Below, in pieces: positions 12,777 to 34,637 of a stretch of 36,439 nucleotides of DNA. The stretch comes from Dimargaris cristalligena. Taxonomy: Eukaryota. The stretch is from positions 1 through 36,439 of the forward strand of contig ML002374.1 in assembly GCA_003614675.1 (NCBI GenBank). The letters are read 5' to 3'. Below the pieces are notes generated by a model. The model was not told the origin of the DNA. It was given only the letters and a program-made list of their open reading frames with translations, and ran no database searches. Each line of letters starts with the position of its first letter. Position 1 is the first letter of the stretch. Position numbers and translations under genes: made by a program.

Positions 12777-15700
12777 CTAAGTTACATAAACATACATATC
12801 CCGGTTGTTTTCATCCCGCTCAATATACTCCTTATTGATCAGTTGCTCAACGCATTTTTTAACCAACGGCACGTCTGGTCGGAACCGCTGTTGGCCCATC
12901 TGTATGACCTCAGCCACCAACTGATTATGGCTTAGCTGCCGTCTTGTTTTCATGATGCGCACAATCAGGGCCTGGAGATACAGTCGACGATCTTCCTCCA
13001 CTACCCGCCGGGTTGCTTCCGAACTCTCCTCCGCGTCGCCCAGGAGGCCATCGCCCTTCGGCGAATACGAAGCGGAGGGGTTGGAATCATCACTGCCGGC
13101 CCCGGCAGAGGCCCCGGTGGCTGACGAAGCCATCGCATTGGCTGCAGGGACGCGCAGCTTGAAGCGCCGGTGACTAAACCGTTGATTAAGTAGGAGGACT
13201 GAATGTAAAGTACAGCCGGGTTGGGTTTGGGGGGCTTGTCGGACTAGCGAGTCCCCCCGGCCTTTGGTCAGGGCACTACGCTCATTGGTTGGAGGGACAG
13301 TTGTGTCGTCGGACACGGCAGATACCGATGGGGTGGAGGAGGAGGATGCGTCTACCGTCAACAGACCCATATCGACCAGTGGTTGGGTGTGGTAAAGGGT
13401 CTCCAAGGGACTCAGTTCGGTCAAGGCGGCTAGTTCAGGTATACTCAGCCGATCTATGCGTTCAAACTGGAGCAGTAGGGCCAGTTGGTGCAATGTCATG
13501 TGGACTTCGTACTTTTTGTCCAAATAGTTGAGTTTCACGTCGGCTTTAGCGAACTGCCACAGCCATGTCAGTTTACGGCCACTGTGTTTGCTGTGGTAAA
13601 ATTCCACGAAGCGATTAAAGCTGTCGAGCAACTCCCCGGGAAATTTGAAGTCCCGGCCCGCCGCCGCCGTCGAAGAAAGCTGACTGCCGCTGCCACTACG
13701 GCTTCCGCCGTTATAATTAGGGTTACTATTGCCATTACCCCCGCCGTTCAGGGGCCACGACCGGGCCGTCAGAACCATACTTTTCATGCGGGTGACTGGT
13801 GCTCCCGGACCGGACCGGGCGAACTCCTGGCTCAGCGTCTCACTCATGGCCACGTCGTTGAACATCTGGTTGAGTTTATTAGTGTACTCCACCCCGCAGA
13901 CACTCTGCAATTGGGCCACAATGGTGGCCTCGGTATCGGGGGAGGCACACTGGTTGAACATCAACCGGCGGGCGAGGGCCCGGGTGTAAAATTTCTGGAA
14001 CACGTCCTTGTCGTCAATATACTTGAATAAATGCAGCATCTGGTGGAGACGACCTTCCCGATCGGTCTCGCTGAGACTGGCCCGGGTCGGTCGGCGTAGG
14101 AGGACCAGGTCACAGTATTTGGCGAAGAGTTCCGGGGCATAAAGAGCCTTGGCTAATTTACCCTCCAAGTCCGGCCGGGTACCACCCCCACCGGTGGCGG
14201 GTGGGGGAGTAGTCTGACTTCCCCCGATGGAAGAAGGGCCACTGGTGGCCGGGGTGGGTAGCGACGATGGACTGGCAACCTCCGTACCCGGGGTCGCCGT
14301 GAGTGCCCATAGACTCCGCTGCTCGTTCACCACCGTTCGGAAGGCCTTGTCCAAGGCGGCCGTAAAGGCCGGGTCATTCCGGAAGACGTCCTGACACGCC
14401 TGGAGCTGTTTGGTATGGAAATGCATGAGCTTCTCCACCACCTCCCGCAGGTCCTTAAACTCGGTCGAGGCCACCGCTCGCTTGATCTGCCGGCCACCCT
14501 CCACCACAAACTGTTCATAAGTTTCCAGGGCCGGTTGAATGCCGTCAGCAATGCGGGCCAACAGCGAATACGCCAACGCACAGCTGTACAGATTGCCAGT
14601 AAAGATGGCCATGTCCAGTTCGGTTTGTAAGCGTGTCACATAGGGGCTAATAAGGGCCCGTTCGCAGCAGGTAACTACTTCCTGGAGAGAACTGGGGTGA
14701 CAGTAACGTTCGCCGTTGGCCGTTTCGGTGACTAAAAGGGCGCTGATTTGCTCCATAAACGACACGATATCCAGCGAATCAAACAGATCACGGGCCCGTT
14801 TTTGGCAGTAGTGGCGAAGCCGGGAAATATAGGGGCTTTTGAACTCGATAAAGTACCAGCTCAGATGGGAGGACGGCGTGGGATCAATAACACACACGGA
14901 ATCGACGAATCGCCGGACGAGCGATGGATGGGTGGCCGACGCGGCGCTGGTAACAATGGTAGTGGCGGCGTTATGGACGCCCTGTCGACCGGAGGCGATG
15001 ATACCAAACGCCTGATTCACCAGTAAATTATCATACTGGTCCCGGATCGCATTGAGGACCCGATAGCGCCAGATCCGGCGGGACAACGAGAGGATATCCT
15101 CGAGGTCGTAATAAGGCGGCTGACTGGTGTTCGGCGAGGCAGATCCCGAAGTCCATAAATCGTTGCTTAGACTACCCGGAAGACCGTCGTATATTACCGA
15201 GGGGTGGGCCGTCAGTCTTGTGGCATAGTTTTGGGTCGGGCCCGTTTCGCTGGCTAATTTCTGGAGCCGTTTGTTTAAGTAGATGCAGAGCGAGTCGATG
15301 TAGATGGAGGCGAGGGAGTACTGCTCCCAGTGGGTGGCGTACGCCTGGAGCGGGTTGTCGCTGTGGATAATTTGCTATAATCGCGGGGAGATAATGGGGT
15401 TGATGGGTAGTTGTTAGTGAGGCCGTGGGTGGTGACGCATAATCTGGCCTAGGTATTAGAAAGGTCGGGATAGGTTTTGTAGAAGGTCGCCGGTTATCCC
15501 CCACCATAATATTTAAATCCCCGATAGGGGTAATAACGGCAGGATTGGCAAGGGGGCTGGGGGGTTTGATTTTATAAACAGCTAAAACTCGATCGTTGCG
15601 GGATACCGGGACGGGCCAGAAACGAAACTCACACCCTCCCATACTAACTACTTGGTCAAGGCACACTCCAACAGCATAGAAACTCCTACCATATAGCGCA

Positions 15701-15931
15701 ACTTACAAGTAGCAGATGACTGGTGTGTTCCTCCAGGTACCGGGCCAATGCATGGAATAGCTGTTGAATGTAAGGTTGGGGTCGGGCGGTACACATATCG
15801 TAGATAAGCTGGATAATATGCACGCCCGAGACACTATCGAAGTTTGAAAAAGAGTATAGTTTGGTCAAGTCATTGCTCAGCTTGGCGAACATTTGCCCAA
15901 ACGGAATGCGACGCTTCTTTAAAAGCAACAT
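12777..15931 (-). CDS. CUL2: Cullin, CUL2-like, 2 exons, 940 aa
   Basis: Exon 15931-15707 plus exon 15374-12777, which is continuous with ORF 15086. Cullin motifs: ALDKAFRTVVN, APELFAKYCDLVL, FKYIDDKDVFQKFY, CGVEYTNKLNQMFND, HSGRKLTWL, neddylation site IVRIMK, KKCVEQLINKEYIER. The N-terminus LKKRRIPF...IYDMCTARPQP...YLEEH resembles animal CUL2 (LKPRVVDF...IYALCVAYPEP...FLENH). Confidence 0.85.
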
Positions 15932-16691: not shown

Positions 16692-19600
16692 CTACGCATT
16701 GCCGCTATCCATCTTGGACTCGAGGGCCTTGACAATAGTATTGGAGAGGGAGGTGGTATAACGCTGGATTTGCAAGAGCTGCCTACAATTTGGATTTAGA
16801 GATGGTGTAAATGGCAGTATTTTTAAAATAAAGCAACAAAAGGTTAGATTAGTAAGTCTGGGGTATTCATAGTATCTAAAACTTGGTACATAGACACCCC
16901 ACCCAGGATAGTGACACTATTTTGCGCAGTATATAGGATATAAGGGCCAGATTTCAGCTGACTTGGTGCGGAAAGGTGCACCCACTTACTTAATACTAAA
17001 TGACGAAAAGTTGGTGTGTGCCTGGCAGTCCTGTAAATCCTGCAAGAGTTCAATTAGATCATCGGGGGACGAGGGTGACCGGTGTTGGTGACTGGCAGTA
17101 TCGGACGAATTCACCTTGGTGGCCTTAATAACTGGTTGGGAGGGCTTTGATACATTGACATCCGCCGCTGGCACGCTGAGCTTCCGTTTACGCGGCAGTA
17201 GCGTCGCAGTGAGGGATCCATTCGTCGAGCCGTCCGGGGAGGGGGCCGAATCCGACTCATCCGACACTTGTGGACTACCGGACCGACTATTGGTCCCATT
17301 GGCAGGGTTCTGGCTTACCAGCTGGTCCCGCGTCATCAATAGCCGTTGGTGGAATGCGTCAGGCACGGTAAAAACGACCCGGATCGGTGATGGACGGAAT
17401 GCCAGGGTAGCAGGGTTCGTATTGCCATTCGTTCGAGAATATTTGGGTGACTTGAGGTAGCACAGTGATATGGGACGCGCCTGGTTCAAAGCATCGGCTT
17501 GGCACGGAACCAGGATTCCTGTGACCGGTGCAAAGAGGTGGTTCCAAAAAAGAATGGCACAGCGGGCGAGTCGGGTGGATTTGTGAGTCAAGGCGATAGT
17601 TAAGAGAGGCATGATGATGCTAAATAGTTTAGCATCGACGACTTTGGTGTACAAGGCCATGGCTCGAAGAATGGCCCGAAGAAGCTGACCTAGCTCGGTA
17701 TGATACAGTGCCTGAACCTGCCGGGTTTGGTCGGCCACATAATGTCGCTCGTCACTCAGCCAGAGGCGTAGGGCCCCCAAAAGGGATGAGTGGGCATCCT
17801 GGAATACGGCTCCATCGGCAAAGTAACAAGGGAAAAGCTCGAGCAATTGGCAGATGCATCGGAACGTGGTCTGTAAAAAGACCGGAAGTTGTTTTTTATC
17901 CTGAGGGACCTGGTCTAGCCAGTTGTAGCAGTCGTAAAGGAAGGACGTGGCTGTTTGTAGTGTATGCTCGTAATCGGTTAGAAATAGAGTGGGTTCCGAT
18001 TGCGAATTAAGGGCGTCGACAAGGGCCTCGGGGAACACAGAGAGACCCATGGGGGAATTGATGGCGATATCAGTCGGATCAGCCGTGCCCAACGTTTGGC
18101 AGACAATGTCGAAAGCAAAGGTCTGCCAAAAAAAGGAGCTACAACCCAGCATGTCCAAGATTAAAGATACACAAAAGTCCGATTTTTAGTAACGGGGTTG
18201 GTTCAAATATATTAATGTCGCAATCAGCACCAACACAAGTATGCCTGTCTAAATCGGTGTATCAAATGGCGGGAGTAGTTCGATTTAGAGTGTCTAAAAA
18301 TCTCGACTTACCTGGATACGGTTAAGAGGGCGCCGTGGTGCCAGTATCGGGCCAGTTGGGTATAAAGGGGGAGTAATAAAAAAGTCAAGCCCCAAGTTGC
18401 TTCGCCAATCCCACTTTGGTGGTCAATCAAGCGGGTGAATAACAGAGTCCACTGGGATCGGATCTGATCCAAAAGCGAAGGTGAACAGTCTTCCGGATTC
18501 AGTAATTTCATGGGCTGGAGTAGCAGAGCAAGGCACTGGGTCAACGCTTCGGTGGGTAACCGGCAGGCCGGGGATAGCTGCGCCAGTTGCGCATTAGTCC
18601 ACTGGGCCCACACTACCCAAGTGACTATGGACGACCGGTGGGGCGCAGGGAAAGCGTTGTGCCATTGTAGCCAGAATGGGTGCATGGCCAAAAAACACTC
18701 TTTTGGGCTGTTTGGTTCGACCTGAGGGCGACTATGTTGTATTAACGCGAGTAAATGGCATTGGGTACTTTTGATCAGGTCCTGGACGCAATCATTGGAT
18801 TCGATTGGGATGCGGTCGAGATGGCGGAGAATCGCCAGGAATAAATCGTTGAGCGCGTCTAAAGGTCGAGTATATTTAGGTAAATCGGCATTAAAAAGAA
18901 AACCAGGTGAGGGATAATGAAATTCCTAGGATAGTTATAAACCCCTCATTGGTATCGGCCATCCACGGTATCCTTAGCATAAGAGCCAGTAACCAATTAT
19001 AGGGAAGTCAGAGCGGAGAAAAATGGAGGGGCACTGGGCTATCGATGATAAACCTACCTATGAGTGTAGATGGCGATGATACAGATGACTGGCGGCTTGG
19101 GGGGGTGAACGCCCCGGTTTTATCGCCGTTTTCGCGGTCCGAATCAATTTCGGCGCCACTATCCCCAGGCTCCCCGATTTTGCCAGCCGGGCCATCTGCC
19201 TGGGTATTGGAGGACGAATCAGATGTCCGAGTTGCGGTGGGGTCACTTGGCAATCCAAGACCGGCGGGGGTAATACATTGGTCATTCAGCAGAGGCCAGA
19301 GATGGGTCGAGTTAAGAAGGCTTGTGACGAGTCGCTCGAATAGAAATAATTCACTGAGATGATACGGCGGAGTAAACGGAGCGGAGTTAGAGGTGTCATC
19401 AGTAGGTGGAGAGGCGGTTTCCGATTCAGGGTAGAGCCAAGTGGGTGGTTTTGCGACACACGGCGGGTCCGTCCGCTGGGATACGGTGCGTAAGGCATTA
19501 ATATACGCCTCGATAGAAGGGCGAGCGGGCAGCCCGGTAGGGTCTAACGTGGCCATAGCGCTAGGGGACGGTGAGGAATTCATCCCGTCCGAGGCTTCCG

Positions 19601-22600
19601 TTATCTCGATTGGATCGCCCTGCAGCAGGTATAGGAGGGCATCCCAGACGGAGGCTAAATAATTATCGCAGAGAGGAATCCGGGTCGAGTCAATCTGGCT
19701 CTCAGGATGGTCGGGAGGCAGATACACCATCGCTTGGTCCGACCACGAAGCCATAGCGGAAGGAGGGTCTGAAGGGGTTATAGCTAGGTTGGTGGGGTCA
19801 ATATTATCGATAGGGGTATTAGAGGACCACGTGAGGGGATTTGGTGGCAGGTCCGCGGACGGCTCTATAGCAGTGTCCTGCAGGGATTTGCCTAATGTAA
19901 ACTGGAACCATTCGATAATTAGCGGGAATTGCTGAAGCACAGTCGCCAAGTCCAACCCAGTCGACTGAAAAAGAAGTGAACGGCAATGAAGGGCTTCAAC
20001 AGCCATCGACTGGATATTTACAGCCGCCGGACTCCCAATTGCCTGGGGTGGATCCCCATCTTCCGCGGATGCCGACGTAGCATCAACTGGGGTGCCCCAC
20101 TGGCGGGTATAAGAAAGCCACCGGGGGGTTAAAATAGGGTTCGGTGGATAGGGGGAAAATGAGAGGTATTCTAGGATGCGGGAGGGCTGCCATGTGGGGG
20201 TAGCATCCGTGACTGGTGTAGGGGTAGACGTACGATCCCGGTTGAGACGTATTAGAGCAGGAGCCACCATGGCCTCAAGCGAATATAGAGCTAATGAGCG
20301 AACCTCGTCGAAGGGGTCAGTCAGGGCCCGCGGGAGTAGCGGCTCAACTACAATGGAGAAAAATACGCCAAGGTGGGTGCCCAAGGCATACACCAAGGTG
20401 ACCCAGGTCCGGAGACAGACACTGCGTATACACCGATTCTTCTCAAACATGAAGCAGTTAATCAGCGGTACCATGATGAGGCGCACCCGTTTTTCGTGGA
20501 ACAGGTTACCGTCCAGGGAAAGGGTGTAAATCAAACAGCGCCAGTGCCGGAATGCAGTCGTTTTCACATCGGCCTTGCGACTATTGAAGGCCTTCTCTAG
20601 CACTTTAAGAAATGGGTTGAGCATGGCGCTCTTGTGGAGCTGGCGACCGAGGTAAGCGATGAGAATCCCCCAGACTCGGGTGACTAGTTTCTCCTCACCC
20701 TTTGCGAACAGGCGGTTCATGGCATCAATTACGGCCACGGCATTATTGGTTAAAAAGTTCTAACGGCAGTGGATATGACATACAGGTCCAATTGGTGGCT
20801 GATGGTTAGAATTGATATAAGGTGATTGTTAAGGGACACGCCCCCCTGATCTTATGACTGCATGCAGAGGTGCTGCCCAGCCTTCACTTGCAATTAACAA
20901 TATCCATGTCATAATTTCCGGCAAACTATACCAATCCAGGGAGATAGTAGTTTATCCCATAACAACTTACTTTGAATACCAAGTCAGTTAGTTTGGAATC
21001 CACGGGCCCTTTATCCGTCGATTTCTCGTGCGGCTGTGGCGTAGGATCCACAAACTGCAGGTAAACCAACCGCATGATCCGTTCCGACTTCATGCGTGCC
21101 ATGGGTGGATCGCTAAATACGTAGTCAATTAGGGTATTAAACCAATCACTTAAATACTGGGTGGCGACCGGTGGGTGTACCGTAAAGGCCCTTTCGAGTA
21201 CTACAAGTGCCTCCATTTTAATGGAAACCGATTTGGGACACTGTCGTAGTATCTGGGTGGTCACACTGACCATCCGAGGAGCCAATTCCTGGATCAGTTC
21301 AGAAGGTACTTGGGCATTTGCGATACAATTAAGGCAGAGTCCGCTGGTCGTCTGATGTATTTACCGAGGCACATGAGTACAAGTATGGTTAAACAGTATG
21401 TGCGTATTATAGGCGGGTTAGTATATTAAATGGCCACAGTCAATTCCCTAATTCGGGGGGGGGGGTGTTCATTTGGGAAAATCAACCATGATTCAATAGA
21501 CGTCGGATAGTACTGGCTGGACTAGGGGGTGAGTGGGTTAGGGCATTAAACGAATAAAAAGTAGGTTACACAATAGAATGTTAAATGACAATATACCTTT
21601 TCCTGGGTTACGGCTAGACGCTCAAGAATCCAGTTCAGAACGGCCTCCAATTGGTCCTGGGGCACTGATTGGGTACATTCGGGAATCCGGAACCAATACA
21701 CGAGGCACCGTAAGGCATAGAGACTAATGACGTGGTTGCTGCTTTCCTTGAGATCGGTGTGAAACGCCTGAAGAAAGAGGGGGGCACTCTCGATTAGGGC
21801 TCGACAGGGCGGAAATGATGTTAATGTGTTGGTATCAACCGTTTCGGCTACTTCGACGGATAGTGAAGGATCAGCTAGCTCGGCCGAAGCCTGGTGATCA
21901 TTGGTAGTAGAGGAACATTCATCTACGGGGATTGTCGCCATAACCGAAGGTGTAGTAGGGCGCAGTTGATGATAGAGGCCCGAGTACAGCTCAATCCGTT
22001 GCTCCACATCCATGATAGCCCATACTAAATTGGGCGATTCGTCCTTCACGTTCATTGGGGACGATTCATCGAAGTCCTTCGGGATACATTTTGACAGAGG
22101 AGTACTCGAATCGGTAGAGTCGGTCTTGGCGGCATCGGATTGGTAGTGGGCGGACCATAGCTGGATAGCGATTTGGGCAAAATTACAGGTGTCGGTGGAG
22201 GGGTCGGAATCAGTTCCCGGGAATTCATCTTCCGGGGACCAGGCCACGGGAAAGAGCGGGCCATGGCCACCGGCTTCCGATATTTGGGCCTGCCGGAGCT
22301 TAGCCTGGAAGAGCGGGGACGGAGAAACCGCGGATGCGCCGGCCTCGAGAACCGCCGCGATGGAGTCCGCCGCCGGGCGGGAGCGGGGGCTACTAGCAAA
22401 TAAACTCACATACTGGCGTAATTTAGACGGGGTTTTCAGGATTCCCTTGACCACATTGGGAGCGGGGGACAGACCAGGCGGGTTGGTATGGGTAGGCAAA
22501 TAACTGGGAGTTCCGGTGGCGGTGGGAGGGGCTGCTGGGACAGGGGTAAGGTCAGTGGAAGCGACTGTGGTAGCGTTTGTGGTTGTGGTTGAAGTTGAAG

Positions 22601-22784
22601 TTGTGGAAGCTGCGCCGGAAGAATCTTCCGGGTGACCCATGAACCGGGGGACAGGTGACCCAGCAGGGATAGGAGAGTAGACAGAATGAGTCAGTGGCGA
22701 CACTAGGCTGCGGGGGCCTAACTGGCAGGAACTGAACGAGACCTGCTTGGCCTTATTACGGGCACTGGCCGGGGTGGCGGGCAT
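16692..22784 (-). CDS. RIF1: Rif1 (replication-timing/telomere regulator), 6 exons, about 1685 aa
   Basis: Exons 22784-21597, 21351-20971, 20759-19058, 18858-18312, 18138-16990, 16782-16692 (5058 nt, phases 0,0,1,2,2 consistent). PP1-docking motifs KQVSF (RVxF) and KGILK (SILK) lie at the N-terminus. Rif1_N HEAT segment: VWGILIAYLG...LNPFLKVLEKAFNS..DVKTTAFRHWRCLIY...RVRLIMVPL. Short helical C-terminal domain. Confidence 0.88.
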
Positions 22785-24516
22785 AGCGAGAAAGAACGTT
22801 TCGAATGAAAGGAACGGGACTTGGGCGGATTCGCGTATAAGAAGAATATATGGGCCGCAGGGCAATTTAAAGAATAAGGTGAGGGTGGTGGAATCGGTCA
22901 GGTACTATTAAAAAATAAGAGTATTTTTGAGAGTCCAGCAGGTTCGCTTGTTACGGCCTGCACTACTGTTCAATAGAGGGTCCCTGCTATGCAAAGGTGG
23001 TGGTAGTGGACAGGTGCTGTTGTTGCGGATCGGGGGCGGGGTTTCGGGGAGGGCGAGTTGAAGAAACCAAAAGAATAAAGGAATAACGATGCAAAAAAAA
23101 TGGCATATATATATAAATAGATTTATGAAAATGGGTGAGGGGGGATATACAATATGAGAGAAATATTCAGAAGGATTTAAACAATGCCAACGAGAAAGAA
23201 CTCGCTTTGTCAATGAAATGGAAATCAGAAGGTCAAAGACGGGCAGCACGGCCGGGAAACCATTAGGGTTAACAGGCACACTACAGCCACTTGGTAGGCG
23301 TTATCGAGCAATGGGTTAGGTTAGCAGGGTAACGTGGGTTGAGGAGTAGGAAGGGGGGCTTGGTAATAAACAAGGCCCCCCGCTAAACTAAGCCGGCTAT
23401 TTGGTTTGGAAGCGCGAGAGCCAGCCGCGATGATTGGTTGATCTAATAGACTAATTCCGAAATCATAACAAAGACCAGTGACATTCAAAATACTCGTCTT
23501 CAATCTCACTCCCTTAATTACCTGACTCAGTCCTCCCCCTCCTCCTCCTTGAAAATAAGACCCTAATATACCCGGTTACCCTTGGAACAATCCGCTGTTT
23601 AATTCCACCGAATCAATGTGGTATAATATGTATATTATTATTTCATAGGTTTGGATACGTTGAGGATGATCACATTATCTAAGAAATAGAGAAAGAGAGG
23701 GGAGCTCATCTCAGCTGCAAAAGGTTTCCAATAAAAATAATATCTCAGAATGATACATTATTATTATCTAGACATCGGACAAATGCGATTTGGAATACGG
23801 ACTGTTCATTTTATACCGGTTGTGTCGAGTGGGACTGGGGGTTACCGAGAGTTGGGATCCAAGTGGGGATCTAGGTTAGGGCTACGCGGATTAGTGGGGG
23901 GTGTTTAAATTAGGATTTTATCAAGACATGTCTATTTCCGGATTCGGTGGCCAATTTTAGGTTTTATACTATTGGTTCCGTTTCGGGTTCAGTCGGGTCG
24001 AATATCGTTCGCTCATCGCTTGGCAGGTTCTCCCGCCATGGTGGGCTACATGGTTGATACGGTTCGTGGGCGTTCTGGTCGCTTGGCGGTTGTAATTTAA
24101 AAAGCGGGGCAGCTGAGCGAAACTCTTATTCAGCTAGAAATACAAACCCACAGGACAGGGGAGGACCACTCCAACTTTATCAGTTTATAGGCACTATCAA
24201 TTACAGAGACGGAAATCATCATAGAAGCAATTACAAGAGGAAGGGAGGGGATGGAAATCAACAGCCGGCATATACTTCGAGTCAGCGGATAATCCACATC
24301 TGTGAATAAGTATGTCATAAGCAATGTATGGGTTGTAGATTGGTTATTGGGGTATTACATTGTTAGAAACTGTCGTAAAAAACTACAAATAGATCCAGTT
24401 TGGGTGAAATACGCCAACTTGTAATAAGGGAGGGTATATGGTAGACGTCGCGGGTAAATTAGGGTATCGGGTGTGCGCGCACACTTATCCTCTCCCCTCG
24501 CTTGCATTCCGACACC

Positions 24517-27500
24517 TCATTTAAGGGTATTCCGAACATAGAACAAATTATACGCTGCCTTAGTCTTGACCTTCGTTTCATCCGACTCCAGTACCCGAGA
24601 GTCGTCAAATAGGTACCATTGGTCCCGCAGGCCGTTTCGGACATGGGCGGTATAATGCCCCCCGGTCAAACTGCCATAGTGATTGGATACGGCATAGAGA
24701 TCGTATAGGCTCGATTCGCCCGCCGTGGAATTGGAATTGGAAGCCGAGGCTGAAGCTAAAGCAGGATAATTCGGGGAGGAACCCATCATCGACCCATTTG
24801 TACTTGTCGGGGGGCGTAAGGGAGCCGCAATAAACCGGTCCATGTTAAGGCCCCGCACGGGGAAATCCACGTCCGTTTCCAGTTTGTTTCGGAACGGTCC
24901 CGAGAACGAAAACCGTTTCAGGTGAATAATCAGCACATCGGGCAACCGCGTAATGACCAGTCGTTTACTCGTCCGGCGGTGCACTTGGCACCGGGGACAA
25001 AACCACTGATCATCACCATCCAGAATTTCCTCCTGGACGAAACTTTCGAGGCATTGGGCGAGGGTGACCCGGGCGAGCTGCGCCCCGTCTGCCACCGAGG
25101 CGGCCGACGGAACGGGTACGGACAGGGTGGTAAAAGGCGCATAAGTAGTCGAAGTTTGGCCGCACGTAATGCACCGTAAGCGGGACTGGATTTGGCCCTG
25201 GAATAGACCCACCACCACCGACCGGTCGCGCAGGAGATGTTTCTCCCAGGCCAGTTCCATGGCTTGGCGGACCGGCAGGGCTTCGAGGGCCTGGTCGGAC
25301 ATGGTGTCGGTCACATGGGCGGGGGGTTTGGCCCCGGGGGGCAACACCACCAGGTTTAGGTCCTCGTGCAACCCATCGAGTAAAAACACTAGCAACTCCT
25401 GGGAATCCTGTTGGTCGTCGCCTTTGAACTGGGGGGCAAACCGACCAATGGCCTCCCGGAACCCCACCGGGGAAATCACCGAGTACTGGCCGCTCCACAT
25501 GGTTCGAACCAGGACCGCAAAGGACTCGGCCAAAACGCCTTGGGTGCCCAAGGGATTCGTTCGGTTGAGGTGGGGTCGGTAGCTGCCGTCCATAAAATAC
25601 CGGGCGAGGGGCACGGTGGCGCTTAAGCACTGGACGATGGAATTCATAAAGCAGGTATTGCCGAAATTGCGCAGGCCCGTGGTGCCCACGTTGACCAGTT
25701 GATTGGACAGGGCCAGTTTCGGGGCAGCGAGCCGAGCGGATGAATCCGACTGAGACTGAGGCTGAGGCTGGGCCGGGGTCGGGGATGGTTTGGGAACCGG
25801 TGGCGGGGGCATGGTAGGTTTCCATTGGGGCCCGGGTACGGAAATGGATTTAGTCATGGGCTGGGGAGTGAGATGGGTAGTAGCCGCTGTGAAAGCCGGG
25901 TCCTGGGGGCTGGTGGCACTACCGCTGGTACTCACCATGGCCTGGGCCTGCATTTCAAGGGGTTTGGCAGGCAGTGGGGGAAGGGCCCCCGAGACTTGTT
26001 TACGTGCGGCCACGGGGATGATGGGCTGGGGCCCTGGTGACCGCGGAGGGGCAGGTCCGGTGCTTCCTAGCGGCCGTAGTCCACCTAACTGTCCCATGGA
26101 TTGGCTAGCGGGGGGTGAATCCTTCGTGACAGCACCAGTCACCCCAGAAATAGGTGAACTCGCCGCGGACAAGGCCGGGATTTGTGGGTAGGCCGGGGCG
26201 GAACGCGGGGGAGGCTTAGGCTTCACTGGTGAATCAGGAGTGTGAGTGAACCCATAGTACGGATTATCGAATATCGATTTCCGCCGGTTCAGTGCCGATG
26301 AACCGGCCACCCGGGAAGGTTTAGATACCCCGCCATGGGGGCTATTAGGCTGGCCATTGTGCGCTGCTCGGTCCGGGTGTTGAGTAGTTGAGGAAGGCTG
26401 CTGTTGATCCACAGACTGGGCCAGGGCGTGGACCGAGGCTGAACCACCGTACATACGGCTCAGCACAGCCGAGGGTAAATCAGACGAATACACAGGCGAG
26501 TCCGGGCCACGCGTAGGAAAGACACCCGAGGCCGTTGCGGCTGTATCCACCGTGGGTCTGGGCGTGGGTTTGAGTTTGGGGGCGGCCGCTGCCGATGACG
26601 CCAGAGAAACGCTCGAGGACCCATTATTGGGTGAGGATGTGTAGAAATACGGACTCGATGCCTTAGGGTAGGCGTGGGCAATATGGGGGCTATAGTCGAA
26701 CACAGAACTGGTTGGTCGGGAGGAGGAAGCTGCCGAAGGTGCGTCAAATGATGGACGACTCAGATTAGAGGTGGAAGTGCCACTATCATTCCGGGGCGGA
26801 TCGGGTCGCTGTCCATGCGCATGGGGGCCTGGGCGATCCGCCAGCCCCCCTTTAGTGCTCGTCCGTTCACTGGAATTATTCAAGTAATCGTAGATGGACC
26901 GATTAATACCCGTGGTTGACGAAGCTGGCGAGGCCACCGCCGACCCGGGCGTAGGTGCAGTTCCCGGGGCGACCCCATTTTGGTCGCGGGTGGCCGGTGG
27001 GATGATCAGGTCGACTGGGGCGGTCGAAGACTGCATAATCAATTGTCGCCAGGCGTTGAATCCGCCTTCCAAGAGCACGGGCATCCGCCGCAGGCTTTTG
27101 GTGAATGCCCGCTCATAAATGATACCAAAGAGCCGGCGAGTGGGGGAGTTTTCGAAGCTGATGGACGAGGGTAGCGAAGGGTTCGAGGCACCCGGAACCG
27201 GGATTAGGGCAGACGGAAGGCCAGGCGGGGCCGTCGTAGTGGTCCGCTCGTCATAATATACAATAAGATCAAATTTATCCCGCTGCCGGAAGTAGTCGTA
27301 ACTCGGTGCATTGCATTCGGTCGCCAGATGACGTTCGATATCCAGGGCGGTGGTGGACCCGGCGGCGATCCAGGCCGGTTGGATATGAACACTGTAGATG
27401 TGGTTGATGCGACTGGCTTCCCAGTATTCCCGGGGCCGGACATCAAGGAGCAGGACGGTGGGGCGCTGGGTAATTGGGAACACGGTTAAATACCGGAGTA

Positions 27501-28807
27501 AAACGACCGGAGTAACGCTGGTGCCAAACGGAAAAGTGGCTGTCGACCGGCTAATGGGGATGGAATAGTCGTAGGTTTCCGCCATGGTATTCAATACCGG
27601 AGAGGGGTATTTTTTATCAATGTCGGTAATGGTTACCTCGGGAGGCGGACTGGGTGCGTGGGGGATATCGTGGTCGAAAAAGGGTGACACCGATCGAGGT
27701 GCTGGCTCCGCGTCGACCGGATTTTGGACATTTTTCCGGTCCAAAGGGGGTGGTAGATCAGACACCTGGGCCAAATCACTCAGTGACGGAAGCGAAGAAT
27801 CGGCGGCGATCGACGGGTTGGAACTGGCGGAATCTGAGCCCTGGGACACCAGTGAATTGGAGCGAGAGGTGGCCGACCGCGCCTTGGCCCGTAGAATTTC
27901 GGCATAAAGACCTTTGCCGCCGGCTTCATAGTAGACCTGGTGGGATGGATTTAATGGATACTTGGAAGGTTCATCGGATTGGGATAGTCGTGGGGAAGAT
28001 GTTCGAGGGATGGCGGCGGTACCGTGGTTACTTGACGTTTTTGCGGGGAGTGGGCTGGTTGGGCTGGTTAAAGTAGGTTTGCTACTCTCTCGGGTACGAC
28101 CTGGGACCCGGTTCAGGGGACGCACTGGTGTGGCTTTAGTACCGGCGCTGCCTTGGGCTCGCTGGAGAAACTGTTGGATACGGGCATTGGTATTGCCGGT
28201 GGGGATATCTTCCACACTCGATGGGTCGGGTGTCGACTCAGAGACTAGAGCGGGGGCCAGGTCGCTAGGTTTTTTATCGTCGGAGGCCACATTGACAGGG
28301 GTTTTGTCCTGAATCTCCTGGGCCAGGGTTTCGAGTATTGGCATGACCTCTACTACTTTCTATGGGGGGCGTGGTGCATTGTAATATTGGGGCGCAAAAA
28401 TAGGAAATTGTAGAGTGGTTGAGTGTCATGGGGGTGGGTTATATTGACAATTATTGGACAACGCCGACGATAGTCTTGCGCTGCATGGGCCAGGCAGGGT
28501 ACATTCAAGTGCACCACGGACTTACCTTACGTAGGTCTAAATACGACGGGTCTTTCTGTACAAGTTGAAAGTCCCGGTGCTTGGGAACCACCTCAACAGC
28601 GACGGAACAGAATTTCATAAAAGCGACATAGGCGTCCTCGGTATGGTGCTCGATGCGGGCCAAGGTGCCCTGTTCGTACAATTTAAAGGCGGAGTGAATC
28701 CAGCTGCGGACCGAAAAGTTCTTCTGGGCCGTGACTTGGGCCCGCTGGTTGAGCTGGGCCAACGATGGATGCACCTGGTACGGCTCTGAAGCCATCGCAG
28801 TCAGCAT
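24517..28807 (-). CDS. USP8: USP8/Doa4-type ubiquitin C-terminal hydrolase (MIT/USP8-dimer + rhodanese + USP domain), 2 exons, about 1374 aa
   Basis: Exon 28807-28526 (USP8-dimer/MIT-like: EDAYVAFMKFCSVAVEVVPKHRDF) plus exon 28359-24517. Rhodanese domain: LLLDVRPREYWEASRI...LLEGGFNAW. Cys box GLRNFGNTCFMNSIVQCL, QQDSQE, CxxC pairs, LIIHLKRF, His box YDLYAVSNHYGSLTGGHYTA, WYLFDDS. The start could instead be ATG 28795. Confidence 0.93.
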
Positions 28808-30251: not shown

Positions 30252-31791
30252 CTACTCTTCTGCATCAGTTGGTAGAGTGGTGTCTATCTCGTCGAAATCA
30301 ACTATACGGGAGGCTAGGTCGGGAAAATCAACCAGTACGCCAAACTGGCCGGGGTGCGGGTACTCGACAATTTCAGAATGAAACTCCTGCGCGCAGTCGA
30401 GATCCTCGGGCCGATCGGGCAAAATAAATTCGGGGAGCCCATTCTCCCGCCGGAAAATTTGGTAATTTTCCACGACCCGGAAGTAGTTCAAATCCGTAGC
30501 GCATTGCAGGGCCAATACCAACTCCCGGGAGTTGCGCGTTGTAAGCTGAGCGGCAAACTCCATAGTATAATCGGCGGCATTGGAATCGGCACTGAGCAGG
30601 AAACCCAGGGTATAGAAGCGCACCAGACGAGAGTCCCGGCCGGGATCAGGCCGGTGGTTCCAGAGGACCAGGTCCTGATAGATGGGGTCAAGTTGCCGGA
30701 TAAATATAAGCATATTTTTGAACTGCCGGTCTTTGGCCAGGGCCATCAGGGCAATGGTGATCATTACCGCAATCGTTTCCCGAGCCAGATAGATACATGT
30801 GTCATAGAAATTGTAGCTGTGGTGATTCTGCATCTCCTGGGAAATGTATTTGCCGAAATAGGTCTGGGCCACCGGGAGAGCGACTTCCCGACGGAGCGCC
30901 TGGGCTAGGACGCGGGCGGCCCGGCCGTCGGACGGATCGTAGGTCAGGGGAACGAACGGAAACGCTTGGGCAACCTCAGTCGGACTTAGGGCCGAGAAAC
31001 TGATCCTCTGGAAACGCTGCCGGGCGTTGCGTAGAAGTTCCCTGGGTCGGTGGGTAAGGGATACCGGCCGACCATTCAGGTTATTAGGGGGTTGGGCTGC
31101 TATTTGCTGATATTCTCTCAAAGTATAGGCGCCAATATGGCCACCTAGTTCGGTTTTGGCCAGTATCTTCCAGATGTGGGCCGGTTCTTGGTTATTCACA
31201 TCAGGTTGGATTTTGAGTTTGGCGAAATCTCGGAAATCCGCCCTGGTCTGGTGGATCATATATTATTCAAAGCAAGGTCAATTAAACCCCCCAAATAACA
31301 AAAGAGGCGTAGTTGTAAGAATAAAAACGATTAGTGGACGAGATGAATTAATTTAAAAATCCATTTGGGTCATCCAATAAACGATCTAATAGGATGTGAT
31401 GGTTGACCATTTATGGCCAAATATATATAGGCCATGGGAGCCTAGGGGGATACAGGCTAAGTCATGGATTTTCTAGGATAAGCATACTAAGTTAGGTAAT
31501 TGAGGAGGGGGTCATTCTCACTAAAACTACCTCTCGTTGTTTGACCTCCAGGGTATAGCGAACGCCCGCACGGTAGCAACTGTCGATGAGGTACAGGGCT
31601 TTGAGGGATGGAATGTCCTGTTGTTTCAGAATTTCGCCCTGGATTTCCACCGGTAGCTTGATAAATAGAGCGGCGTTTAGAGTGGGTTGACGTTTACGGG
31701 CGGCAATCCATTGATCAGGATTCTTCCAGACGACATTAGCCGTTAATGCCGCCCCGAAAAAGTAAAACCATATCCAAATGGAGAGCATCAT
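30252..31791 (-). CDS. Putative secreted protein with an N-terminal F-box-like motif and an unknown C-terminal region, 2 exons, about 418 aa
   Basis: Exon 31791-31531 (donor GTAGTT, phase 0) joins exon 31247-30252 (acceptor CCACCAG, phase 0; branch ACTAAT at 31335-31330 with no AG in between). Hydrophobic N-terminus MMLSIWIWFYFFGAALTA; F-box-like FIKLPVEIQGEILKQQDIPSLKALYLIDSCYR. Confidence 0.7.
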
Positions 31792-33812
31792 TAAATAGAT
31801 CGAATTGTACGATACGGTGCTTTTTAAATGCAGGCTACTTAATATAGGGGATTGGAGAGTGAATGGGGCAGAGTGGTTGAAGTGAAATAATAATAAATGA
31901 TAAGCCGGCTATTTAGGGCCAACGTTGGCGAAGAAGCGAAATCGGCAATTAGTTAAAAGGGAATATATCTAGGAGAAAGTTGCCAACCACCCGTGCAGTC
32001 GACTAATTAATCGAGCCGGGAAAATACTAGAGAAGGGCGGTTCTTATGGGGAACAACAGAGGGAAGGAAATACAAATCGGGTGATGGAGGAGGCTCAGGG
32101 CGCCCCCAGCCTGACTATTTATGGTATGAGTTCCAGCCAACCTCGTCTGGTCTTTCCCTAATTGTATTTTGATGTATAGACATCGGTGGGTCGGCAGGGG
32201 CGGCACTTACCTTGTGCTCTGGAGCAAGAAGTATACACCTGTGTCACCTAGTGACCTACAAAAAAATCAGTCAAGTCAAGGGGTTCTTCAAACAAGCCCG
32301 TAGGTAGGAGAAACAGAAGGCTAACCAACCCAAGCGAATTCCCGAAAATGGTGTAACTCAAGCCACACTGCCAGCAATGGAAACCAAAGATACGCCCTGC
32401 AGTGATTTGCGGAGATGGCCGGCATTATTACATGGGCCTACGGCAATAGAAATAACCTAATAAATCAAACGACCATGCTGAGCCGGCCGGAGTCCTTCGA
32501 CCTTTTGCTGCTAGAGCCCCATTTTAGATCCACAGACAATTGATTCGCCGTGGGGATGTATCAAACGCGAAAAGGATTTAGGCCTCGCCACTGTGGATCC
32601 CAGAGTGCTGGGGAGATGGGATATACAATTGATTGTCCCACAGGGAGTGGATTAGCACAATAGAAACGGCGCTACCGATATTATAATACAGCGCCATCGC
32701 TAGCTGAGCCAAATCCGGCCTGGAGATAACTCAGGCAATGAATATAGATGTATTGGAAGGCGGGAGGGTAGGAGGGCTACACCGTCGGCATTGAACGACC
32801 CGACGATATAGCACCAGCCGGAAGGAGTGAAGGGATGAGAGGGGAGGTTGGAAACAGGCAGACTATTCCGCTGCCGAAAGGTTGATGATTAATTATATAT
32901 ATATCTATGAATTATACCGTGGTATTCGCGAAGTATATAGAGCGCGCTCCAATAAGGGAATGTTGAGCCCCCGTCATTTTCGGGCAGGCCGGGGTTTGAT
33001 ATAGGCTCGGATGGAGCAGTTCTTATCTAATGCAAGTAGAGAACCCTTGGATACAGTCCAAAATCCACGCGCAGAGTTGGTCTGCGAAGGGAGGTGGGAT
33101 TTGCAAGGTGGAAGGATGTGTACATCCGCCTGCCCAGCTGACCAAAGGCCCGGCAATGTGAATGGCTGCTGCTGTTGCTTTCGCCCGTTACGCGATGGTA
33201 TATTATGGTAGGAGGGATTTATAAATACTTGGTTAGAGTCCGACAATCTCGGCCAAACCACCGATAATTTATTCTTCTTAATTACCCCTTGTGCTTCGTC
33301 CGTTACGGCTCCTTCATCCTCCACCGTGGGCAAGAGAGCCTGAGTGGAGTGGGTGAATGAAAAATACGTTGCGTTGATTAACCTTCAGTTTCTGGAGTGG
33401 ACCCTGACTGAGAAGAACGCCACTTTCGCTTCCGCATCTCTGCAGAATTTTTCACTCTCAAACTATTTATATCCCGCTTGACCTCGACTACGATATAGAG
33501 AGCGCCGCTCATCCTGTTAAATATAATACAGCCGCCGTCCCTTCTATTATATATTACACAGCACCTTCTTCCCACACCTGTTTTTCCCCTTCCGACTCAA
33601 CCCTGCTTTTTCCCTGCCGTCGTATTGGCTTTCTCACCTCGTCAAACCGTGCTCTTCCTTATGAGAAGATCCCCCCCTCCTCTGCTATTCCACTGCTACC
33701 TTCTTTACGCCTTTCTTTATCTGGTCTTCTTCTTTTACCACTATTATTGCTGACTTTCAGTTGCTGTTGTTGTTGCATTCTATCAAGCATTACTCCCTTC
33801 CACCCCACTGCC

Positions 33813-34637
33813 ATGATTCGGACCTACCGCATTCAAACTGGGCTATTCAGCCCCTCCACGGTAACCCTACACCTCGACCGAGCCCTTCCAGGCCTCCTGG
33901 TGCTAGCGTCAAGCGGCCCTTCCCGCCAGCGCCAGCATTCCTTTTCGCAATCCTCCGCCCGCCTCAACTCCGTGGACTCTGCCTACTTAACCGAGGGAAG
34001 GTCGCGTGCCCAATCCCACAGCCACGACGCCCCCAGGGGTCTCGCCAGTAATTCTTCCTCCTCCTACGCCGGAGACAGCCCCACATCGAGCCAGGCCTCC
34101 AAAGATTCCAGCGACTCACAACTGTCCACCACCCTGGAGGCGGCCCCTGAACTGGCCTCCTGGCGCAAATCGAGCGTGGCCCTTCCCCAGGGTCGCCGGG
34201 TGATTCTACATAGCCTAGCGACCGGCCAGGTCCTCTGGGAAACCGATGTGGTGGTCCCGGACCCGACCAGTTTCGTGGGGCAGGGTCACGGTATCAAACT
34301 GGAACTGCGTCAGCCGAAAGTGCCGGGTGCCCGCTCCATTACCCTGCGGCTCCGGGTGGAGTTCTGCCTGGCGACGGCGTCGTTCCAGTTAAACGGCCAC
34401 AAACTCCGGTGGACTTTGCTGAGCAACGCCCTGGGCGTCGGGGACGGGGCCTTTATCTGCATGGATACCGTGGCCCGGCAGCCGGTGGCGCGGCTCGAGT
34501 ATTCCCCGCTCAAACTCTTCCGACAGTCCGGGCGCTTCTCCATTCAAGACCAGGGCCAGTCCGGGGCCGACTCACTTATTGTCTTCACCCTCCTGGTCGC
34601 CCTGGAGTTTTGTCGCCAATGCGGCCTGGCCCTCTAA
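33813..34637 (+). CDS. Hypothetical protein, DUF6593/LURP-one (tubby C-terminal-like) resemblance, intronless, 274 aa
   Basis: First ATG at 33813 in GCCATG context, inside ORF 33747-34637, with GC3-rich codons and a Ser-rich insert. The C-terminal pattern F.LNG..LRW...F.C.D....PVARL......G.FSI......D.LIVFTLLV.LE resembles fungal DUF6593-type proteins. The family call is tentative. Confidence 0.7.
   Translation: MIRTYRIQTGLFSPSTVTLHLDRALPGLLVLASSGPSRQRQHSFSQSSARLNSVDSAYLTEGRSRAQSHSHDAPRGLASNSSSSYAGDSPTSSQASKDSSDSQLSTTLEAAPELASWRKSSVALPQGRRVILHSLATGQVLWETDVVVPDPTSFVGQGHGIKLELRQPKVPGARSITLRLRVEFCLATASFQLNGHKLRWTLLSNALGVGDGAFICMDTVARQPVARLEYSPLKLFRQSGRFSIQDQGQSGADSLIVFTLLVALEFCRQCGLAL

Follow-up and report, generated by a model that had tools for sequence, protein, structure and literature searches.

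F-box proteins are mostly soluble. A precedent for members tethered or directed to membranes is given by FBXW7beta, the endoplasmic reticulum (ER) membrane isoform of human FBXW7, to which passages of PMC10111352 ascribe a unique transmembrane domain in the isoform-specific N-terminus and an F-box directed toward the cytosol, and by the Skp1-Cul1-F-box (SCF) ubiquitin ligase SCF-FBXL4, which acts on outer-mitochondrial-membrane proteins according to part of PMC13554234. Nothing on membrane anchoring of FBXW7beta was found in PMC11026729. The present analysis concerns a minus-strand gene at 30252–31791 in a 36,439-nt stretch of DNA from the fungus Dimargaris cristalligena (GenBank assembly GCA_003614675.1, contig ML002374.1, positions 1 to 36,439 of the forward strand; hereafter the window). 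Its predicted product of 418 residues very probably carries a divergent F-box, and the whole is tentatively read as an SCF substrate receptor of the fungus's own, an orphan that is anchored in a membrane and faces the cytosol.

Like FBXW7beta, the D. cristalligena protein would combine a putative N-terminal membrane segment with a cytosolic F-box. The two differ in other respects and are unrelated in sequence: in place of the WD40 repeats and dimerisation domain of FBXW7, the protein described here has an orphan C-terminal domain, and its putative anchor lies at the very N-terminus, with just some 20 residues between it and the F-box. The arrangement also resembles, in layout only, that of the microsomal cytochromes P450, which are reverse (type III) signal anchors with a very short N-flank or none, a hydrophobic segment of ~20 residues and a basic cluster, the bulk of the protein being cytosolic.

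[quoted passage not shown] Excerpts of PMC7330099 report that the F-box of one member binds wheat Skp1-like proteins and that Hessian fly effector genes encode signal peptides. The LRR-bearing SSGP71 family is diversified and very large, whereas for the D. cristalligena protein phmmer found no paralogue and Pfam no LRR, and the leader is atypical. F-box-like domains in zygomycete-grade fungi, a feature shared with the present protein, have been listed for the secreted candidate NLS_30765 of Rhizophagus clarus (PF12937; portions of PMC4746824) and for the Mortierellomycotina secretome orthogroups OG0000176 and OG0000338 (PF12937; PMC9391592, from Table S6). In these portions of the sources they are computational secretion candidates, and their PF12937 domain is detectable by Pfam, whereas Pfam detects none in the D. 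cristalligena protein. Bacterial and viral F-box effectors, such as Ralstonia GALA, hijack host SCF by F-box mimicry; they have no sequence relation to the protein described here and arrive by type III/IV secretion or are made in the host, not via a eukaryotic signal peptide. Among the papers searched, none joined "Dimargaris cristalligena" with "F-box", and secretion, signal peptides and transcriptomes all go unmentioned in the main text of the D. cristalligena genome paper (PMC6784888).

The F-box-like segment

Residues about 42–87 (LFIKLPVEIQGEILKQQDIPSLKALYLIDSCYRAGVRYTLEVKQRE; 31531–31668, minus strand) very probably form a divergent F-box, with Skp1 binding as its putative function. The F-box consensus comprises LPxE[ILV], the spaced hydrophobic residues of helices 1 and 2, and a [VIL]xxxx-aromatic element in helix 3. 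Residues 46–73 (LPVEIQGEILKQQDIPSLKALYLIDSCY) display the pattern LPVEI...IL...L..L.LI...Y, with an aromatic residue at the position where F-boxes have Trp. A regular expression of this kind, built from that consensus and partly post hoc, after sight of the sequence, had these residues as its sole match in the 72,874 residues of the six-frame translation of the window. Among shuffled versions of the protein, 7 of 20,000 matched.

Two further lines of evidence point in the same direction. The UniRef name of the protein is "F-box domain-containing protein", a type of name that presumably comes from PROSITE or InterPro signatures. In the ESM Atlas, residues 34–92 gave a best feature match of 0.91 to a cluster in which 58% of the members have PF00646, and all 10 of the structure rows shown were F-box-bearing clusters (TM-score 0.54–0.65, normalised by query), the alignment falling on the F-box itself in several. 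A Ralstonia GALA cluster was among these rows (row 8, TM-score 0.57). When the whole protein was used, several F-box clusters appeared among the neighbours (0.85–0.87), which serve as leads only, and the structure search was uninformative (TM-score of at most 0.30). The LPxEI stretch that the preliminary description had taken for an F-box is thus graded as probable on the basis of the UniRef name, the Atlas neighbours and the consensus pattern.

Several results weigh against an F-box. The profile comparison suggested alongside that earlier claim was negative: no Pfam family of any kind was matched at E ≤ 10 by the whole protein, by either exon product or by three F-box sub-pieces, and no F-box chain was found in the PDB by sequence. 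AlphaFold2 was run without an alignment, because no homologues exist, and reached a pLDDT of 35 when given the whole protein and of 54.8 when given residues 34–103. The model of the latter piece has strands in place of the three-helix F-box, and both models are too weak to count either way.

In other genomes, PF12937 gave only three matches, all below the cut-off, across 401 bacterial ones, and the Skp1 family PF01466 gave none in one bacterial genome (that with the uS5 look-alike locus) and 14 control genomes.

The hydrophobic leader and the predicted topology

The protein begins with an uncharged, aromatic-rich leader (residues 1–22, MMLSIWIWFYFFGAALTANVVW; 31726–31791, minus strand), a candidate membrane anchor or signal peptide, and continues to a basic cluster, R32-K33-R34 (31690–31698, minus strand), which may be the flank expected from the positive-inside rule, a site for Kex2 or a nuclear localisation signal (NLS), alternatives that sequence cannot separate. 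Both elements had been recognised in the preliminary description and both are present, but the leader is not directly followed by ARKR, as had been stated there; 12 residues (NVVWKNPDQWIA) lie between the two.

In cleaved signals, a basic n-region precedes an h-region of about 7–15 residues, small residues occupy positions -3 and -1, and the mature flank is no more positive than the n-region. According to the charge-difference rule, the more positive flank of a hydrophobic segment remains in the cytosol, and long hydrophobic cores favour N-terminal translocation. In the present leader, no Lys or Arg lies ahead of the hydrophobic run, the first charged residue being K23. The h-run extends over 18 residues, six of them aromatic, within an uncharged run of 22 residues, and the best 19-residue Kyte-Doolittle window is 1.59. 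The 15-residue C-flank has a net charge of +2 (or +3 if the core runs to W22) vs +1 for the free amino terminus, so that delta(C-N) comes to +1 for a core that stops at A18 and to +2 for one that stops at W22. The leader thus has the layout of a reverse signal anchor, namely an uncharged segment of ~18–25 residues at the very N-terminus, whose C-flank carries more positive charge than its N-flank. AlphaFold2 placed one helix at residues 2–22, with low confidence, and all 11 weak PDB matches of exon 1 (E ≥ 2) were NMDA-receptor chains aligned on the receptor's own N-terminal leader region, and are noise.

A control for comparison is available in the window. The signal peptide of a polysaccharide deacetylase (MKCTFIALGLLLVVSAGQSVHA, with TT following the cleavage site) has a basic n-region (MK) and an h-run of 15 residues, one of them aromatic; its c-region is polar and closes with VHA, and its delta(C-N) is -1. 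The gene of this chitin-type enzyme is located at 10371–11231 on the plus strand, with its ATG at 10371 and a match to Pfam PF01522 (E = 1e-28).

As far as sequence features go, the leader is therefore unusual as a cleaved signal peptide and has more the look of a membrane anchor. Two points count against this assessment. The rules on charge difference and h-length describe statistical tendencies, and were applied by hand. Moreover, a possible cleavage site exists between ALTA and N, with Ala at -1 and Leu at -3; following a hydrophobic core of 14–16 residues, it is an acceptable signal-peptidase site, so that the leader is also compatible with a cleaved signal. Several features are either neutral on a luminal or secreted fate or speak slightly against it, namely the absence of N-x-S/T sequons, the presence of only four Cys in 418 residues, the acidic tail and a second hydrophobic helix at residues 239–257 (IYLARETIAVMITIALMAL; 30738–30794, minus strand). 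This helix has the maximum Kyte-Doolittle value of the protein (1.78) and contains Arg and Glu; it is probably a buried core helix, although predictors could call it a transmembrane segment. Two other destinations were considered and rejected, a mitochondrial presequence, given that the first 22 residues have no positive charge, and a glycosylphosphatidylinositol anchor or HDEL retention signal, given that the C-terminus is acidic and lacks a hydrophobic tail.

In the tentatively favoured reading as a membrane-anchored receptor, the first 20–22 residues would act as a reverse signal anchor at the N-terminus (N-out, C-in). The membrane concerned would probably be that of the ER or of another endomembrane compartment. 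The prediction follows from the lack of positive charge on the N-side, the long uncharged run and the more positive C-flank, judged by the rules given above. The F-box and a helical domain of ~330 residues would lie on the cytosolic face, where the F-box would bind the fungus's own Skp1 within the SCF ubiquitin ligase, and the C-terminal domain may recruit a membrane-proximal substrate for ubiquitination. Such a topology would place the F-box in the cytosol together with Skp1, and the paradox of a secretion signal on an F-box protein would therefore disappear without an effector being invoked.

Gene structure, orphan status and neighbouring genes

At this locus, two minus-strand open frames (31492–31908 and 30252–31262) are joined in frame through 31791–31531 (261 nt) and 31247–30252 (996 nt), which yields 418 codons and one stop (30254–30252). 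Exon 1 (31531–31791) has 87 codons and comprises a tandem ATG ATG start at 31791, the hydrophobic leader, the basic cluster and the F-box-like motif. Exon 2 (30252–31247; 331 codons and the stop) encodes the orphan C-terminal domain, which is helical in the low-confidence AlphaFold2 model and ends in the acidic tail. The predicted intron (31248–31530, 283 nt) is of the GT..AG type (GTAGTT...CCACCAG), has stops in all three frames and has a GC content of 0.37, vs 0.49 and 0.54 in the exons.

The spliced product corresponds to NCBI RKP38388.1 (hypothetical protein BJ085DRAFT_30611, 417 residues) with one extra leading Met, and KAJ1994484.1 (418 residues), from a second, independently annotated D. 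cristalligena assembly, has the same junction and an MM start. The N-terminus encoded by exon 1 is identical to that of both entries, which agree with each other at 415 of 417 residues, both differences being in the C-terminal part. Codon-usage log-odds, trained on five Pfam-supported open reading frames (ORFs) of the window, reached +0.22 in exon 1 and +0.27 in exon 2 when these were read in the annotated frame, vs +0.10 to +0.23 for four held-out ORFs, and were negative for the intron in all six frames. The splice of two ORFs into a protein of about 418 residues, as first described, is hence borne out by the same junction in two public gene models and by codon usage, and the two-exon gene is real-looking, with splicing and start as predictions. 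An antisense ORF at 30318–30908 was rejected as coding, its reverse-frame codon scores being at most -0.03.

A total of 32 in-frame GT-AG joins are possible, and three donors within 9 nt use the acceptor at 31247, with exon ends at 31531 (GTAGTT), 31528 (GTTTTA) and 31522 (GTGAGA). Choice among the three alters at most three residues and leaves the domain layout unchanged. In appearance, the GTGAGA donor at 31522 is closer to the canonical form than is GTAGTT at 31531, the annotated one.

The start at 31791 is reasonably supported by features of the sequence. A TATA-like element, TATATT (31841–31846, minus strand), lies 55 nt upstream of the first ATG, and another element rich in A/T, TTTAAA, begins at 31828 on the same strand. 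There is no ATG in the in-frame upstream stretch 31792–31908, and no ORF longer than 62 residues in the ~1.1 kb upstream of the gene. Any F-box-containing protein that starts in exon 1 must include the leader, because no in-frame ATG occurs between codons 2 and 226 of the spliced gene. The codon score of the 66-nt leader gives no clear signal (-0.13 in frame, whereas one of the reverse frames has +0.15), which is a point against the anchored reading.

The protein is a lineage-specific orphan of D. cristalligena. An exhaustive phmmer search of 1.84 billion representatives (E ≤ 0.001) returned a single match, the protein itself; the same was true of a word-indexed search with exon 2 (one of 2,942 candidates) and of a region search with residues 36–90 (one of five candidates). 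A recognisable paralogue family in this genome is therefore not supported, as phmmer found the protein alone although the parent collection of its library includes both D. cristalligena gene models, and neither is the idea, put forward in the preliminary description, that the gene probably belongs to an expanded family. Its other remark, that some 330 C-terminal residues could not be assigned, held: Pfam, PDB and the Atlas gave no assignment for this part. The 45 PDB matches of exon 2 (best E = 0.16) are noise: 44 of them are chains of P450cam/camphor monooxygenase, a soluble bacterial P450, and the remaining one is a ribosomal protein L10E.

With regard to the surroundings, three ubiquitin-system genes are located within about 19 kb on the minus strand (12777–15702, 24517–28359 and 30252–31791). 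In addition to the gene described above, the trio includes a cullin gene (Pfam Cullin, E = 7.5e-100, with a Nedd8 domain; best PDB match human Cullin-1 at 9.9e-78, with Cullin-2 close behind) and a gene for a large USP/UBP-type deubiquitinase (UCH, E = 3.2e-69). They may be chance neighbours, and the count was made post hoc. Four long minus-strand ORFs in 19008–23300 (22908–23300, 21546–22904, 20926–21360 and 19008–20759), the first two of which are parted by a single stop, probably form one large multi-exon Rif1-like gene; the only Pfam match in this region is to Rif1_N (E = 4e-16), in 19008–20759. An ORF at 2111–2953 (minus strand) contains the N- and C-terminal S5 domains of ribosomal protein uS5 (E = 7e-24 and 9e-21), preceded by about 138 unassigned residues, and has a 43%-identical stretch in a Verrucomicrobiaceae metagenome-assembled genome; it may represent a mitochondrial-type uS5. 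The ORFs 16986–18185 (minus strand) and 33408–34637 (plus strand), of 399 and 409 residues, have coding-like codon usage (+0.22 and +0.19) and no Pfam family at E ≤ 0.001, and are further unassigned genes of a fast-evolving genome.

Alternative readings and implications

Instead of being anchored, the product could be a soluble cytosolic or nuclear F-box protein, with RKR as part of an NLS and with a leader that is either a plain hydrophobic helix or a 5′ artefact of the gene model, such as a missed upstream exon or a wrong start. The prevailing solubility of F-box proteins speaks for this account, as do the status of both gene models as predictions, the indecisive codon score of the leader and the in-frame upstream stretch, which is open for 39 codons and scores +0.11. 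The genome paper is also compatible with it, the terms transcriptom* and RNA-seq having 0 occurrences in its main text (PMC6784888). On the other side stand the lack of an in-frame ATG between codons 2 and 226, the TATA-like element at a distance that fits the 31791 start, the upstream region free of sizeable ORFs, and the selection of the same start region by two pipelines, and a soluble protein is considered rather unlikely. It is a good deal less likely that there is no functional F-box gene at all, the segment being a chance LPxEI look-alike, the ORF a young or decaying orphan, or the two exons unrelated ORFs. The missing Pfam match, the failure of all the sequence searches (phmmer, word-indexed and region) to find a homologue, and the low confidence of every fold attempt would fit such a case, and so would the ORF of exon 2, which opens at 31262 with Y-M and has an in-frame ATG of its own at 31259. 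However, the codon usage of both exons equals that of bona fide genes, the signature-based name and the Atlas neighbours indicate an F-box, the pattern is rare among shuffles, and an F-box ORF of 87 codons, an AT-rich GT..AG gap and an in-frame ORF of 331 codons constitute the normal layout of an F-box protein.

The preliminary description had proposed an effector that redirects host ubiquitination. In that account, the leader would be cleaved, RKR would be a Kex2 pro-site, and the protein would enter the host hypha via the haustorium, where host Skp1 would serve to degrade host proteins. This is judged improbable, and the fuller version, in which an orphan F-box effector of a haustorial mycoparasite with a cleaved leader and a Kex2-cut RKR docks on the conserved Skp1 of its fungal host and leads to the proteasome, as the first fungus-against-fungus SCF hijacker, is slightly more improbable still. 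A number of observations favour the effector: the hydrophobic N-terminus with its possible ALTA site and a dibasic site 16 residues further on; the biology of D. cristalligena, which parasitises other fungi by haustoria and has a large predicted secretome (815 proteins out of 7,456, given as a total in Table S2-type data of the PMC9391592 supplement); the orphan, fast-evolving character typical of effector genes; and the precedents of SSGP71, NLS_30765 and the Mortierellomycotina orthogroups, to the extent that the cited excerpts describe them. Against it, the leader has no basic n-region, a long aromatic-rich uncharged run and a positive delta(C-N), the opposite of the canonical signal peptide in the same window; phmmer found no paralogue family; a protein of 418 residues with four Cys and no sequons is unlike small Cys-rich effectors; and the strongly hydrophobic helix at 239–257, if called transmembrane, would cause secretome pipelines of the standard type to discard the protein.

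Were the secreted reading true, host-SCF mimicry, which is known in bacteria, viruses and a gall midge, would extend to parasitism between fungi, and the candidate would have a conserved partner in Skp1. Secreted F-box candidates of early-diverging fungi are already in print as computational lists, so that only this gene, and not the concept, would be new. If the anchored reading is true, the protein would be one more lineage-specific F-box receptor and would be of modest use in illustrating, for an early-diverging fungus, SCF targeting that is tethered to a membrane; N-terminal anchors of this kind would also inflate lists of effectors defined by a signal peptide plus an intracellular domain.

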